Of a DNA stretch of 64,000 nt, positions 24,648 through 56,060 are shown in pieces. The stretch covers positions 32,001-96,000 of IMG/VR virus record IMGVR_UViG_3300012007_000009. One strand, written 5' to 3'. This stretch comes from a virus. Taxonomy: Duplodnaviria > Caudoviricetes. Position 1 is the stretch's first letter, and each line of letters starts with the position of its first letter. The notes under the pieces were generated by a model, which saw only the letters and a program-made list of their open reading frames with translations, ran no database searches and had not been told where the DNA came from. The position numbers were made by a program, and so were the translations under genes.

Positions 24648-25755
24648 TCTGCACCTGCTGTACCGGTTGTTCCACCTGGACCGGCTGCTGCACCGGGTCC
24701 AACGGCATCTTGCCAATCATCTGGCACTGGGCAATCATCATCATGACATCCGAAAGGAATTCCAGGAGCGTCACCTCCTGGTTCACCTGGGACTGCGTGG
24801 CGCGGACGGCCTTGCCGAGCATGGAGGAAAACTGGATGTACATGAAGTCAATCTGCCCGTTCGTCGGAAGCGGGATGCGATTCATGAAGTACAGCCCGAA
24901 CGGGATGTAGACACTGCGGAAATCGTTTACGTTGGACGAGATGAAATACCGGAGCTTCCTCGGGTCCATCATGATAGTCAGCTGGTAAATGTTCTTGATG
25001 GTCTCCTCGCGGATGACGTTCGGGTGCCCGACGATGCTCCCGTTGTTCTCGAGGAACGTAAGGTGCATCGCGTTAATCATCGAACGGATGTCCGGGTAAC
25101 ATGCCTGGATAGTCTCCACCAGGGTATCCTTGGAGACAGTGCCTCCCGTGAACTTGGTCTCCTCAAGCGCGATATGCTTGAGACGCTTGAAGATGCGCTT
25201 CTTGTATTCCGCGTCGTCCCCGGGATGGTCGAACGCTATCGGCGTGCAGCGTGACTTGATGGCGTCAGGTATTCTCCATATCTCGTTGCAGGTGAGAATG
25301 AACCTGAGGTTGGACGAGGTCGCCTCTATGAGGGACTGCAGCTTCCTGTAGAACGAGTCGGGGTTCGACGGGTGGTCCGCCTCGTCGATGACGTAGTACT
25401 TGGGAAGGCCGTTCCCGGAACGGTACATCCCTCCCTCCTCGATGCTATCCAGTATCTCGGAGTCGCGCTGGGCGTACAGCACCTCCCGTTCCGCGCCGAG
25501 CATGAGCGGGAAGGCCTCCGCCAGACTGGTCTTTCCTGTACCGGGTACTCCGGAATGGAATATGTAGTTGTTGTACCCACCAAGACGGAGGGCGTTCCTC
25601 ACGATGGTGTCCAGCTTTTTCGGTAGAATGATTTCGTCGAGGTTCCTTCCCCTGTGCTTCTCCACCCAGGCCAGCGTCCGGTCGCCCGAAACTTCCGTTT
25701 CCGTCTGGGACGCCTGGACCGGCATCCCCGTTATGAGGTCTAGTTCTTCTGCCAT
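24637..25755 (-). CDS. Clamp loader large subunit (gp44/RFC AAA+)
   Basis: WVEKHR, GVPGTGKTS, IDEAD, FILTCN, SRC, YPDIR. Confidence 0.92.
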   Translation of the reverse strand: MAEELDLITGMPVQASQTETEVSGDRTLAWVEKHRGRNLDEIILPKKLDTIVRNALRLGGYNNYIFHSGVPGTGKTSLAEAFPLMLGAEREVLYAQRDSEILDSIEEGGMYRSGNGLPKYYVIDEADHPSNPDSFYRKLQSLIEATSSNLRFILTCNEIWRIPDAIKSRCTPIAFDHPGDDAEYKKRIFKRLKHIALEETKFTGGTVSKDTLVETIQACYPDIRSMINAMHLTFLENNGSIVGHPNVIREETIKNIYQLTIMMDPRKLRYFISSNVNDFRSVYIPFGLYFMNRIPLPTNGQIDFMYIQFSSMLGKAVRATQSQVNQEVTLLEFLSDVMMMIAQCQMIGKMPLDPVQQPVQVEQPVQQVQNAV

Positions 25756-31373: not shown

Positions 31374-32107
31374 GGCAGATACCTTCTTTGTAAAATTGCA
31401 ATTTGTCCGAAAGTTTATATACGTGGCAAAAAAAAAAAATCAAATGCCCGGCATAAACTACAGGGCGAGGAACTAGATTATGGACCTGAATATCCCCAAA
31501 TCATCCACGGTAAGCCACGAGCTACCCATTTTCAACGAACTTAGCCAGGATTCCGGCCTGCCTGTAAGCGAAGTGAAGGCCAGGTTCAGGAACAAGATGC
31601 TCGAATTGCACCAGAAGTCCCTTGATGACCCGTCCAGCCTGCCGCTCGGCACGGATTCCCAGGAAATGGCGCATACCGCGGTCAACGAGCTGCGTACGGA
31701 ACTGGAACACCCCGAGGAAAAGCTGGATGACCAGGATGAATACGACCAGATTATGGGATTCGACCCGACCCAGCCGGCCCCGGGTTCCGATATTTTCGGC
31801 GCCGATGACTTCGGGGGTGGTGATTTCGGGGGTGGCGACAGTTTTGGTGGCGGTGACTTCGGCGGTGGTGGATTCGGTGGAGGCATCGACAACCTCGACA
31901 TGGGATTCTCGGACGAGGGCATGGACGCTGTCAACTCGGTCGCCGACGATGGATTCGACGATTTCGGCTTCGAGGACGATGCAGGGTTGTCAACAGCTAA
32001 CCTAAAATCTACCTAAATTTACTAAGTTTTACCGAAATTTGCAAGTATTTCATTGCATTTTAGGTTGAAGCTCGGTATAAAATTTTGTATATTGTTATAA
32101 ACTTGAT

Positions 32108-48387: not shown

Positions 48388-48457
48388 CCCTATGTAAACC
48401 AAACTTTACATAGGGTTTGCTATTGACATAATATGACACTCCTGTTTTGCTATATTT
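48388..48457 (+). promoter_or_regulatory. Transposase promoter region: 11-bp inverted repeat plus TGCTATATTT
   Basis: CCCTATGTAAA-n6-TTTACATAGGG (48388-48415); motif at 48448-57. Confidence 0.55.
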
Positions 48458-48477
48458 CCATTATAGAAGGAGGTCTT

Positions 48478-49533
48478 ATGTCCGAAGTAAATCTTGTTTA
48501 CCAGATGTACAACACCTTGTCCAAATCGGACAAGATGCGCTTCATGCAGATGCTCGGCATGCCTCCGCAGATGACCGAAATCATCGACTCATCCACGATG
48601 GAAGAGTTCCTTGACAAGTACCGCTTCCACAATGGCGTGTGCTGCCCGCATTGTGGTCTAGTGGATGTCAAGAAGAACGGCAAGACAAAGACAGGACACC
48701 AGCGGTTTCAATGCAAGGGTTGCGGTAAGTCATTCACCTATGCGACCCGCACCATCTTCCATGGAGCCAAGCTGCCGCTTGACACCTATCTCCGCTATGT
48801 GCATTGCATGATGCACGGTATGACGGTCAGGGCAACGGCTTATGAATGCCATATTTCCAAGAATGCATCCTTCTTCCTCCGTCACAAGATTCTGGATGCT
48901 CTGCAAGAAATGCAGTCCAAGGTGAAACTGGACGGCATCGTGGAAGCGGACGAGACCTTCTTCCGTATTTCATTCAAGGGCAACCATAGTCGGAGCCAGT
49001 TCTTCAGTATGCCCCGTGAGCCTCACATGAGAGGCGAACGCTCCAAAAAGCGTGGTATTTCATTGGAAAAGGTATGTGTGCCGTGTGCGGTCAACCGTGA
49101 CGGCAAGTCCATTGCACAGATTGCGAACTTGGGTCGTGCATCGGTGCGGAGCATTTCCAGCGTGTTCGGTGGTCGTATCTCACCGGATGCGGTTCTCTGC
49201 ACCGACAAGCACAATGCGTATGTAGGGTTTGCAGAGCGGGAAGGCATCAACCTATTGCAGTTAAAATCTACCCAGCGTGTCAGTGGCACGCTGGGTATCC
49301 AGCACATCAACGGCTATCATAGTCAGCTAAAGACATTCATGGAACGCTTCCACGGAGTTGCTACCAAGTATCTCAACAACTACTTGGTATGGCACAATCT
49401 TCGCAACTACGCCGAAGGTGATTTCAACTTCAAGGAATCCGTATGGGAACGCCATAATGCTGAAGCCATCTACGATGACTCAAAGTGGACTTATATGTTC
49501 CGTCCGCCTATTCCTTTGCCGTTGGCGGCATAA
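48478..49533 (+). CDS. IS1595-family (ISXO2-like) DDE transposase
   Basis: Zn ribbon CPHCG...CKGC, HTH, VEADETFF, LCTDK..AY, HINGYHSQLK, YLNNYL.W; SD AGGAGG. Confidence 0.92.
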   Translation: MSEVNLVYQMYNTLSKSDKMRFMQMLGMPPQMTEIIDSSTMEEFLDKYRFHNGVCCPHCGLVDVKKNGKTKTGHQRFQCKGCGKSFTYATRTIFHGAKLPLDTYLRYVHCMMHGMTVRATAYECHISKNASFFLRHKILDALQEMQSKVKLDGIVEADETFFRISFKGNHSRSQFFSMPREPHMRGERSKKRGISLEKVCVPCAVNRDGKSIAQIANLGRASVRSISSVFGGRISPDAVLCTDKHNAYVGFAEREGINLLQLKSTQRVSGTLGIQHINGYHSQLKTFMERFHGVATKYLNNYLVWHNLRNYAEGDFNFKESVWERHNAEAIYDDSKWTYMFRPPIPLPLAA

Positions 49534-52743: not shown

Positions 52744-53658
52744 TTAAATCTGCTTGCTCGAAAGCAGGTCAACCATGTTCAGCATGCTCGACCAGGTTCC
52801 ACCGACACTCATAACAGGGATTAGGAACACGTGATGTCCCTGGAACTCCACCTTGGTCCACCTGAACTTCAGGTTGTTCGGAAGTTCAAACGGGCGGTTG
52901 GCTATCAGGACGAAGGGCCTGAATGTCCTGTCCTTCTCGCGGTCTATCACGACAGCGTCATCGAACTCAACAATCGCCTGGTTTGTCTTCGGGTCGACGG
53001 ACTTCACGACGACGGACGGCCTCTTCCCGAGCTCTATGTTGACCAGGGCCGCCCCGTTCAGCCGGCTGAACATGTTCCTCCGGTCATCCCGCATGACCTG
53101 GAGGTACTCGTGCAGGTCGAGGTACCCGACCATCTGGTGCTTCACCGGACGGTTCGCCTGGTGCCATATCCCCCACATATACCTGGCGATGACGGGTTGG
53201 AACAATGCACCCTTGTCTGCGCCGAGGTTCGCCATCAAATTGTATATCCCAGGAATATCCTTCATCAGCTCTGTACATGTGGTCAACTTTCTGTCGGCCT
53301 TGTCGGAGAAAGTGTTCCTCCCGGGAATTCCCTTGAACTTCCCGGTGAATACGTACCTATCGAAATCGAACCTGGGGGAATTGAACGAGTTGAGCGCGTT
53401 GCACACGTCGGTGCCTTCCCTGCTCTTGATGGGAACCCGGTCGGGAAGCGCGTACACCTCCACGGTCTCCCCCACCATCTTCCACGCATCCAGGGTAACG
53501 CCGCAGTCGGTAGTGTACTTCGCCTTGCTTATGGTGGCGTGCGGCTCGGGTTTCCCGTGAATGTCGCACAGGCCCATGGACTCGCCGAGCACTATGTGGC
53601 CGGCGTCGATGTCCGGCATGTACACCACCTGGGTCTTCCCCATGTGCTGGAGTATCAT
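52744..53658 (-). CDS. Hypothetical protein
   Basis: 304 aa from MILQH; ATGA overlap with the gp25-like gene; its stop codon lies inside the transposon TSD. Confidence 0.6.
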   Translation of the reverse strand: MILQHMGKTQVVYMPDIDAGHIVLGESMGLCDIHGKPEPHATISKAKYTTDCGVTLDAWKMVGETVEVYALPDRVPIKSREGTDVCNALNSFNSPRFDFDRYVFTGKFKGIPGRNTFSDKADRKLTTCTELMKDIPGIYNLMANLGADKGALFQPVIARYMWGIWHQANRPVKHQMVGYLDLHEYLQVMRDDRRNMFSRLNGAALVNIELGKRPSVVVKSVDPKTNQAIVEFDDAVVIDREKDRTFRPFVLIANRPFELPNNLKFRWTKVEFQGHHVFLIPVMSVGGTWSSMLNMVDLLSSKQI

Positions 53659-56060
53659 ACTACGCGGCCCCTGTTCTTGAAAGGAATAGTTATCGTCTGC
53701 ACTTCGCCCGCGGGCACTATGACGCCGAGTATAAGGTAGATGCCGTTGGGACCGACATCCTCCACGCTGCACTGCTCGTACACCAGCCTAATCCTGGGCT
53801 CGTATTCCTGAATGGCGGCGAAGCACTCCTGCAGTATGTCGTTCTGGTACCCGCCGGTGCGTAGACTGAATATGCGCTCCTCGATGTTGGTACCGAATTC
53901 GGGGTTGAACAGCCGTTCGCCCTTCCGGGTGAGAAGGCAGCTGTACAGGTTCTGTATCATGCTGTTCTCGTCGGTAATCTCGGTGAATCCCTTGTAGCCG
54001 AAATCTCTGTTGTACGAGGCGCTTCGGCTTACATTGGCATCTATTACGCCGGGTTTCATCCGGTCGTTGAGCTTGACCACCCTGGGGACCACCACCAGGG
54101 CGTTGACGGTCGCGGTTTCGCTGCACGGTTCGGCAACCCCGGGAACCCAGTCGGAATTAGTGGGCTTCTTCATCACGGTCAGGCTTATGTTGCCGCCATA
54201 TCCCCGGGGCATCTCGAAAGTGAGCGTGGACCCGTCGTTCGTCCTGACCGGCACCCACTTTGCGGGGTCATCCTCGTTGCCGAGGCGCACCCGCATGTTA
54301 CCGGCAAGGAAATCGAACGAGGCGCTGTTCATCGACATCACGGAAACTACGTCGCCCGGGCTTATGACATCGGGCATGACCTTGACAGGGATGGGCACGA
54401 ACTCGCCGGAGTCCTCGCCGGCGGCGTACGTTATCCTGAAGCATGGCGTGCCCGGCCCTTCGGCCCCGAGCAGGACCTCGGCCCCGGTACGTCCATACAG
54501 GGTGAAGGCGAGCGACACCGGCCTACCGGTTGCGCACCACTTCTCGCTGGTGGACGAGGGTACCTCGAAGGTAAACACCCGGGCCTGGCTCTCGTAATCG
54601 CAGGTCTGCTCGTCCCCCTCGTCTGACTGTATGGGCATGCGGGCCAACGGGATGGCCGAAATCTTCTTGCTGACCGCAGTTGCGTTGTCGCCGGTATCCC
54701 AGAAACTGTCGGCAAGGGGAGACATGCATATGTCAGTGAGCACCTCGGTGCTGGCCTTGACCAGAACCTCCACCAGGAACTTCCTTCCCGTTCCCCCCTC
54801 GGCGGCTACCGGCGGGTTGAACTTTATGACGGCGAATTTCCCGTCGCAAACCGCAATCGTGCTACCGTCGACCCCGCCCCCCTTGTCCGGGTTGGCCAAG
54901 TCGAACGCCCCGTACAGTGACGGGTAGAGTATGACGGCTTCGTTCTCGATGGTGGAACCGTTGTTCACGCTCGGCTCGGTCGTGGCGTTCCTGGCGGGAG
55001 CCTTGAGAGTTCTACGGAGAAGCTTCTTGGTGGATACGGGAGGTTCCCGTTCCGGGTAAGGGCCGTAATTCGCCGGGACATCCTTGGCCGGCGTCCTGGG
55101 CGCGTAGGCGATTGAATCTATATCCAGCCCAAGGGCTATGTTCCTGCTGCGGCACACGAACGCATTGGCCGCGCCGCCATTCGCCGGCCTGATGTCGATT
55201 ACCGCGTTGGCTACTACGGTGGAGCCTCCCCTGCAGAGGGTAATCCTGTCCCCGTTCTTGAACGTATGTGCCGGCCATATGACGACCGCTTCGGACATTC
55301 CCGCGATGGCAGTTTTATCAACAAGATATTCACAAGTTATCCACTTTGTAGCAACAGCTAATTCACAATTCTCGTATTTAGTCGTCTGACAGCCGAACCC
55401 CGTGAAGAACCTGGTCCTGTAGGTGAACGAATTGTCCGCGGTCACCGAAACTCGGTAGGTCCCGTTGAACCTCTCCCCGGCAACGCCGCATGAATGGTCG
55501 GTCCTGGGAAACCCGCTCATGGTGACGGCATCGCCGTCGGCAAACCCGTGGTTTCCGCGGGTGACTACCGTCACCGTACCGGTAACCGGGTCGTATTCGG
55601 CGGACTCAATCGATACCGGCGGCAGCCTGCGTTCGATAAGCACGTTGACCGGTATGTTTCCCGAGGAATAAGTCCCGTTCAGCTTCGATTCACCGGAGAG
55701 CCTTACCGTTCTTCCCGAGGAATCCATGAACTCCAGCGAATGCTCGTACGTGTCCCCCGAGAACTCGCACACCACCTCCAGGTTGAAGGAGGAGTCGTGG
55801 GTCGAACCGGTAGTGTCGTTGTATGGGCGGCGGAACACCCCGTTCCAGTCATCGTAGGTCACCGTATCGCACGGGTTGGACGGTACCGCGTACACCCCGG
55901 TACCCGTGGCCGATGTGAGGTCGTTCATGCCGTCATACCTGAAGAATAGCCTGGCCCTGTACTCGCCCGGGTCTGGAACGTTGCCGGACATGCGCAGAGC
56001 GAAGACGTAATTCCCGGTATCCCCGGTATAGCCTGACATTTCCTCGATAACATTCAGCAT
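53655..56060 (-). CDS. Oversized gp25-like baseplate wedge protein with N-terminal beta-rich domains
   Basis: C-terminal SMIQNL...LLTRKGERLFNPEFG......F...I.EYEPRI; N-terminal HGFADGD.V...FNGTY.V repeats and an IPT/TIG-like segment. Confidence 0.8.
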   Translation of the reverse strand: MLNVIEEMSGYTGDTGNYVFALRMSGNVPDPGEYRARLFFRYDGMNDLTSATGTGVYAVPSNPCDTVTYDDWNGVFRRPYNDTTGSTHDSSFNLEVVCEFSGDTYEHSLEFMDSSGRTVRLSGESKLNGTYSSGNIPVNVLIERRLPPVSIESAEYDPVTGTVTVVTRGNHGFADGDAVTMSGFPRTDHSCGVAGERFNGTYRVSVTADNSFTYRTRFFTGFGCQTTKYENCELAVATKWITCEYLVDKTAIAGMSEAVVIWPAHTFKNGDRITLCRGGSTVVANAVIDIRPANGGAANAFVCRSRNIALGLDIDSIAYAPRTPAKDVPANYGPYPEREPPVSTKKLLRRTLKAPARNATTEPSVNNGSTIENEAVILYPSLYGAFDLANPDKGGGVDGSTIAVCDGKFAVIKFNPPVAAEGGTGRKFLVEVLVKASTEVLTDICMSPLADSFWDTGDNATAVSKKISAIPLARMPIQSDEGDEQTCDYESQARVFTFEVPSSTSEKWCATGRPVSLAFTLYGRTGAEVLLGAEGPGTPCFRITYAAGEDSGEFVPIPVKVMPDVISPGDVVSVMSMNSASFDFLAGNMRVRLGNEDDPAKWVPVRTNDGSTLTFEMPRGYGGNISLTVMKKPTNSDWVPGVAEPCSETATVNALVVVPRVVKLNDRMKPGVIDANVSRSASYNRDFGYKGFTEITDENSMIQNLYSCLLTRKGERLFNPEFGTNIEERIFSLRTGGYQNDILQECFAAIQEYEPRIRLVYEQCSVEDVGPNGIYLILGVIVPAGEVQTITIPFKNRGRVV
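55315..55367 (+). repeat. Five DnaA-box-like 9-mers at exact 11-bp period inside the gp25-like CDS
   Basis: TTATCAACA, ATATTCACA, TTATCCACT, GTAGCAACA, TAATTCACA starting at 55315, 55326, 55337, 55348, 55359. Confidence 0.6.

Follow-up and report, generated by a model that had tools for sequence, protein, structure and literature searches.

A selectively constrained array of DnaA-box-like 9-mers within a baseplate gene of T4-like jumbo phages

A baseplate gene of a T4-like jumbo phage carries an array of five 9-mers that resemble binding sites (boxes) of the host initiator DnaA. The gene was found in the IMG/VR virus record IMGVR_UViG_3300012007_000009 (Duplodnaviria; Caudoviricetes), of which we analyzed positions 32,001 to 96,000. 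This stretch of 64,000 nucleotides is called the window, and coordinates refer to it unless stated otherwise. The source record (G000) comprises 160,790 bp, has an estimated completeness of 44%, and originates from ruminant-gut metagenomes. The array occupies positions 55315-55367 on the plus strand (53 bp). Its 9-mers have a single orientation and are separated by 2-bp spacers, i.e., they follow each other with an exact period of 11 bp. The array is a DNA-level signal under strong purifying selection, which acts on synonymous and even on non-synonymous sites. Judging by the sequence of the boxes, host DnaA is likely to bind them cooperatively. The combined claim is that the array would be a host-DnaA oligomerization array serving as a non-origin recruitment site (a sink or sensor, or else a roadblock); we assign it a probability of about 0.5.

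The gene with the array (53655-56060, minus strand) encodes a protein of 801 amino acids (P0001). The C-terminus of the protein matches the gp25/GPW domain of the baseplate wedge (GPW_gp25: PF04965, 1.5e-07; phrog_43, 5e-12). The initial annotation, which was made from the sequence of the window, had flagged a patch at 55311-55385 rich in A and T at third codon positions; the selected core of this patch is 55315-55369. It described five 9-mers with an 11-bp period in AT-rich baseplate codons, and this description was borne out by the sequence, by the GC content, and by the chance controls. The GC content of the array is 0.32 versus 0.54-0.64 in its flanks and about 0.6 in the gene, and the array is the lowest-GC stretch of 57 bp in the gene. 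The units on the gene strand, u1 to u5, are in this order TGTGAATTA, TGTTGCTAC, AGTGGATAA, TGTGAATAT, and TGTTGATAA. The motif occupies all three codon phases.

The array scores 33 out of 40 against TTATNCACA. A scan of the 160-kb record for further 11-bp arrays gave only 28 for the next best site, and the top array scores in 30 simulated genomes of 160 kb were 22-25 at most. The initial annotation had also proposed codon-shuffled controls. Synonymous resampling of the same peptide with the codon usage of the gene itself resulted in scores of 21-30, and none of 5000 resamples reached 33; the peptide by itself yields about 25 of the 40 points. The case made there against a protein repeat is only partly valid. 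The peptide is insufficient, but a repeat of 33 bp (11 residues, CE..V) relates boxes 1 and 2 to boxes 4 and 5, respectively, and so explains part of the similarity of u1 to u4 and of u2 to u5.

The whole array is present in one copy in G000 and in one copy in a related record, G001 (260 kb, 91% complete), and it outranks all other phased arrays of G001. The word TGTGAAT has three copies in 160 kb, two of them within the array, and other copies of TGTTGATA are dispersed inside genes. An apparent cluster of four boxes at 257.7 kb of G001 was rejected as a palindrome counted twice together with scattered sites.

Selection on codons and on the peptide

Our codon alignment covers copies of the gene from 18 distinct lineages. 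The protein has 22 homologues with 42-98% identity, among which the peptide of the array is conserved. The array is retained in 12 lineages having 43-60% protein identity to the window. Constraint on synonymous sites, for which the initial annotation had suggested a check, is present in these divergent lineages. We compared codon identity among nine lineages whose mutual protein identity is at most 61%. Where the amino acid is the same, the codons agree in 357 of 384 pairs (93%) in the patch versus 6353 of 13064 pairs (49%) elsewhere in the gene. The individual comparisons of lineages with the window are each significant, with P from 1e-4 to 3e-2.

The retained codons are minority ones (TGT 25%, GAA 35%, TAT 35%, GTT 16%, GAT 34%). 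The share of A and T at third codon positions is 0.78-0.89 in the patch versus 0.16-0.43 in the gene in the 12 lineages, and in most homologues the patch ranks first or nearly first among the rare-codon windows of the gene. Nevertheless, codon rarity is not the rule, because AAG, a common codon, is fixed (or CGG is) where the motif requires G; the common codon ATA is kept too. Valine in the array is always encoded by GTT and never by the equally rare GTA. In two codons the third-position T is invariant while the encoded amino acid varies (A/V/I/L in one codon, L/S/I/Y in the other), and this T opens the next unit. The constraint itself has the period of 11 bp: unit positions 1-8 are near-invariant and positions 9-11, on the spacer side, are free. 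The free spacers admit codons ending in C or G.

Conservation of individual units was counted in 13 lineages with five units each, i.e., in 65 phage boxes. Box 5 (TTATCAACA, 55315-55323, plus strand like all the others) is read as codons xxT GTT GAT AAA (x-V-D-K). Its positions 2-9 are invariant in 12 of the 13 lineages; GTT is found in 13 of 13 cases and GAT in 12 of 12, though GTG and GAC are the preferred codons. The sole variable position of box 4 (ATATTCACA, 55326-55334; TGT GAA TAT, C-E-Y) is box position 5, which is N in the consensus. Box 3 (TTATCCACT, 55337-55345; AAG TGG ATA A.., K-W-I) keeps GTGGATA in 12 of 13 lineages, and its codon for K or R ends in G in all 13. Box 2 (GTAGCAACA, 55348-55356; (A)-V-A-T) is a weak box; TGTT is conserved there, and the leading T is the invariant third base of the A/V/I/L codon. 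Finally, TGT of box 1 (TAATTCACA, 55359-55367; TGT GAA TTA, C-E-L) is conserved in 12 of 13 lineages, and the unit is degraded in the L018/L019 lineage. Variation in the best-kept boxes (units 3-5) is confined to box positions 1, 3, 5, and 9, and the strictest positions, 2, 4, 7, and 8, never vary.

Cross-lineage codon identity has a second peak at 53940-53985 (residues 693-707 of P0001, the gp25 core). We rejected this segment as a second DNA element: its fixed codons are the preferred ones ending in C or G, which corresponds to ordinary codon bias in a highly conserved segment.

Two lineages (L001/L016 and L017) have no array. They are nested among array-bearing lineages in the gene tree, and therefore the array is ancestral and was lost twice. 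No relocated array was found within the 5-12 kb examined at the array-less loci. The amino-acid identity of the patch is 34% where the array was lost versus 65% among array-bearing lineages, at equal identity of the whole protein. The initial annotation would have been contradicted by homologues that keep the peptide and not the DNA motif. We observed the opposite: of the peptide, just W and Y remain in the lineages where the motif was lost. As the peptide is relaxed where the motif is lost, the DNA signal appears to constrain the protein, i.e., the DNA motif seems to hold the amino-acid sequence in place.

Resemblance to DnaA boxes

We used a matrix of 150 boxes bound in vitro by DnaA of B. 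subtilis (PMC4447404, tables S2 and S3) as a reference. Box 5 scores 13.6 bits, box 4 scores 11.8, box 3 scores 10.8, box 2 scores 3.9, and box 1 scores 10.9. The four boxes with 10.8-13.6 bits correspond to the 57th to 88th percentile of true boxes (box 5 is at the 88th), and fewer than 1 in 10,000 9-mers of the genome score as high. Three of the five boxes (3, 4, and 5) are identical, letter by letter, to boxes bound in vitro. Thus the comparison with DnaA boxes made in the initial annotation holds for four 9-mers when they are judged by the experimental matrix. It does not hold by the relaxed consensus TTWTNCACA, which none of the five matches exactly (four have one mismatch and one has three).

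We also derived a matrix from the 65 phage boxes and compared it with that of B. subtilis. The correlation is r = 0.95 in the correct register and at most 0.39 in ten shifted registers. In particular, the phage matrix reproduces the splits A/G, C/T, C/A, and A/T at positions 3, 5, 6, and 9, respectively. Three-box scores are 27-36 bits in all array-bearing lineages and at most 4 at the array-less loci.

We also derived a 27-nt pattern from boxes 3-5. It was matched by eight bacterial genomes versus about 0.3 expected by chance. Every one of these eight matches falls into a cluster of DnaA boxes in non-coding DNA, and four of the matches lie next to dnaA or dnaN or in the spacer between these genes.

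Several observations concern the loci with similar runs of boxes. The 27-nt pattern is also found in two unrelated viral contigs (L054, 1350-1450, and L055, 3560-3680). In both contigs, DnaA boxes, some perfect and some variant, cluster in non-coding DNA and share the three-box geometry with its 11-bp period. Three Trueperaceae genomes (L059, L061, and L063; the spacer between dnaA and dnaN) have runs of four to five DnaA boxes with 11-12 bp spacing in their origin regions. A run of four to five boxes with the same spacing is located upstream of dnaA in a metagenome-assembled genome of Lachnospiraceae (L060). The Trueperaceae and Lachnospiraceae runs include the variant TGTTGATAA adjoining TGTGGATAT, and the Lachnospiraceae run coincides with phage units 3-5 at most positions, one spacer included.

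Alternative explanations

The array could be recognized by another sequence-specific protein. This might be a phage factor of the iteron, centromere or packaging type, for example a protein with five helix-turn-helix (HTH) motifs, or a host winged-helix regulator of the PhoB/PhoP type, which recognizes direct repeats of 11 bp. We regard such a binder as rather unlikely. Five direct repeats with an 11-bp period are the layout of some plasmid centromeres and Pho boxes too. Simple optimization for DnaA would also not predict that box position 1 is free and that units 2 and 5 strictly retain A at position 6. The five-HTH protein (P0025, 37761-39791), which the initial annotation had named as a possible binder, is encoded 16 kb away in the replisome operon. 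However, records with the array (G001 and G003) and two records lacking it (G002 and G004) conserve this protein equally well, at 53-55% identity, so nothing links it to the array. A cognate binder of the iteron type that is both nearby and co-inherited was not found either: the neighbouring genes are those for the baseplate protein, an unknown protein, a UvsX-like protein, and a DnaB-like protein. Three further features speak against a different binder. First, the TTAT half of the 9-mers is constrained, including the synonymous sites of ATA, TAT, and GAT, while a motif composed of a hexamer and a spacer needs no such constraint. Second, the spectrum of variants fits the DnaA matrix. Third, no further use is made of the word in the 160 kb of G000 or the 260 kb of G001.

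The suggestion of an intragenic replication origin did not hold up for the main origin. In G000, the cumulative GC skew reaches its minimum at 118 kb and the array lies at 87.3 kb; in G001, the minimum is at about 90 kb and the array at 58.3 kb. The distances are thus about 31 kb and 32 kb, and the inflection that was to be looked for at the array is absent from both records. The flanks are GC-rich coding DNA in which neither an AT-rich unwinding element nor DnaA-trios (repeats of nAn triplets) were found. There is no site of the integration host factor (IHF; WATCAANNNNTTR) within 250 bp on either strand, the consensus being that of E. coli, which may not suit the host. The lack of an unwinding element and the distance to the skew minimum make it improbable that the array is the main origin of replication. 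The skew itself is clearly V-shaped over the whole G001 record (L083-L095) and is V-shaped in G000 too.

The same absences and the same distance count against an auxiliary DnaA-dependent origin or a helicase-loading site comparable to the intragenic origins of T4. We consider this explanation unlikely, and somewhat more so than a different binder. It would agree with the oriC-like geometry of the boxes and with the patch being the least stable DNA of the gene. Moreover, the gene is located just upstream of genes for a UvsX-like recombinase and a DnaB-type helicase, and the loss of the array in two lineages suits a redundant origin. T4 has the intragenic origins oriF, in uvsY beside gene 25, and ori34, in gene 34. 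They consist of a middle promoter together with an unwinding element that forms an R-loop, and they have no DnaA boxes. The array resembles oriF as a cis element within a coding region of a T4-like phage, close to gene 25 and recombination genes. It differs from the T4 origins in having no detectable promoter or unwinding element and in having the DnaA boxes that T4 lacks.

The patch might also act in the mRNA, as a ribosome pause at rare codons, as an RNA structure, or as a site of an RNA-binding protein. We find this very improbable. It is true that, in most homologues, rare codons are more concentrated in the patch than in any other window of the gene. However, selection keeps the identity of codons and not just their rarity, as GTT versus GTA and the common AAG and ATA demonstrate, and the invariant third-position T persists despite the varying amino acid. 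A period of 11 nt is meaningless for single-stranded RNA or for codons. RNA folding indicated neither a stable structure nor a conserved one: the predicted fold of the single sequence has z = -0.17, and the consensus fold of 13 sequences has -0.9 kcal/mol with one compensatory pair. An Rfam search gave no match.

The array might also be an intragenic promoter of the sigma-70/sigmaA type (TTGCTA, 17 bp, TGnGAATAT) that reads along the gene strand, perhaps with sites of a regulator; this explanation deserves marginally less credence still. The register matches that of a conserved consensus promoter at 24.8 kb of G000 (see below), which is likewise overlapped by DnaA-like boxes. However, a scan for promoter and terminator consensus sequences gave no match here. 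The conservation pattern is also wrong for a promoter: among the five units, the -35-like one shows the weakest conservation, the critical A at -11 is the one varying position of unit 4 (G in L038, T in L036), and the best conserved units are the would-be spacer (unit 3) and the downstream unit 5. The late-promoter word ATAAACT was tried as well and rejected, as it is not conserved in the patch.

Finally, the possibility of a by-product of the conserved peptide, of chance, of an antisense open reading frame, or of a recent recombination patch is negligible: despite the share of the score that the peptide alone yields and an antisense frame of 83 amino acids (55138-55389, plus strand) that overlaps the patch, these readings were tested against their own predictions and rejected, given the failure of all synonymous resamples to reach the observed score, the loss of the peptide along with the motif, the extent of the constraint (about 57 nt with an 11-nt period versus 250 nt of the antisense frame), and amino-acid differences within the patch that follow the gene tree.

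Possible role, host, and significance

According to the reading that we prefer, the three or four good boxes would recruit host DnaA, probably in its ATP form. DnaA could then spread cooperatively along one face of the helix, as it does on the low-affinity arrays of E. coli oriC. The array would be a DnaA-recruitment site of the same kind as datA or the DnaA-box clusters (DBCs) of B. subtilis, and it may soak up or sense host DnaA as phage copies increase. Alternatively, it may be a DnaA roadblock or a regulator within the late baseplate gene.

Arrays of low-affinity sites in E. coli oriC were reportedly described by Rozgaja and co-authors in 2011. The arrays for DnaA-ATP in this origin, R5M-tau2-I1-I2 and C3-C2-I3-C1, have their sites 2 bp apart (PMC6727663). 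Like the phage array, they consist of four to five imperfect 9-mers in one orientation with 2-bp spacing, and they support cooperative spreading of DnaA. Unlike it, they are non-coding, are anchored by perfect R boxes, and lie beside an unwinding element. The three-box geometry of the phage array is also found in bacterial dnaA-dnaN origin regions.

The E. coli locus datA and the six DBCs of B. subtilis function in titration or inactivation of DnaA and in control of local transcription (PMC3245932, PMC4447404). The array is similar to them in being a tight cluster of DnaA boxes away from the origin, and its box spectrum is the same as that of the sites bound in B. subtilis. However, datA requires an IHF site, which was not found at the array. 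In addition, datA and the DBCs are chromosomal and mostly intergenic, whereas the array is carried by a multiplying lytic genome.

In T5-like phages, the injection-stop region contains conserved DnaA boxes and variant boxes, TTATCAACA being the commonest variant, at a non-origin place (Davison 2020, bioRxiv 10.1101/866236). There, as here, DnaA boxes are conserved in a lytic phage away from an origin; their function in T5 is unproven. The T5 boxes differ from the array in their location in a non-coding terminal repeat and in forming pairs 3 bp apart within inverted repeats.

Several observations weigh against a DnaA-recruitment site. Two lineages manage without an array. At box position 1, the phage boxes use the four bases almost equally, while T occupies this position in 67% of the B. 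subtilis boxes. DnaA-like boxes are not enriched genome-wide, with 75 sites (at least 7 of 8 matches) versus about 93 expected. No DnaA gene was found on the phage record (160 kb, 44% complete). Boxes 2 and 5 keep GTT in every lineage, although the preferred GTG would give a perfect core. The strict retention of GTT means that something more specific than maximal affinity for DnaA is selected. As TTATCAACA is the commonest variant in T5-like phages and is present in the oriC matches, it may have a property of its own. Lastly, the role of a DnaA sink or regulatory site, although probable, was chosen by elimination.

A few data concern the surroundings of the gene and the host. A DNA search with the baseplate gene against public phage records gave no match. 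In relatives, the gene is followed 3' on the same strand by genes for proteins of 304 and 103 residues, a UvsX-like recombinase, and a DnaB-type helicase. In G000, an IS1595 element is inserted at this place, 3' of the baseplate gene. The nearest Atlas clusters of its transposase (48433-49533) belong mostly to Bacillota, which is a weak lead to Bacillota as the host phylum. A sample of 201 genomes from the family of one oriC match included only 11 genomes that match with at most two mismatches, and this identifies no host.

A divergent intergenic region at 24,813-24,853 of G000 (about 7.2 kb left of the window start; 2813-2853 in L081), and at 2344-2371 of L082, contains a consensus promoter of the sigma-70/sigmaA type on the minus strand (TTGACA, 17 bp, TATATT). 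It is overlapped by two boxes of the DnaA matrix that are 2 bp apart and score 13.6 and 11.9 bits. The G002 lineage, which lacks the intragenic array, has conserved both the promoter and the two boxes. By its sequence, this site looks like a DnaA-regulated early promoter, and it points to a host that uses TTGACA/TATAAT promoters.

The array is an unusually clean case of overlapping codes. Because the motif overrides codon preference, selection on a protein-binding motif is directly measurable here, and the comparative evidence of function is stronger than any that DnaA-box arrays in non-coding phage DNA can provide. If DnaA does bind the array, large lytic phages that have their own replisome still engage the host initiator. 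This would bear on how phages shut down or sense host replication and on why DnaA boxes recur in unrelated lytic phages, for example T5-like ones. The boldest form of the reading is possible but doubtful, namely that a family of T4-like jumbo phages wrote a functional DnaA-oligomerization array into a structural gene and thereby reads or drains the host initiator. If it is true, host initiation would be switched off as phage copies rise, or an auxiliary origin would be fired beside the recombination and helicase genes. In that case large lytic phages would use DnaA in a way not described before, and DNA recognition by a host protein would have shaped the sequence of a phage protein over a very long time.

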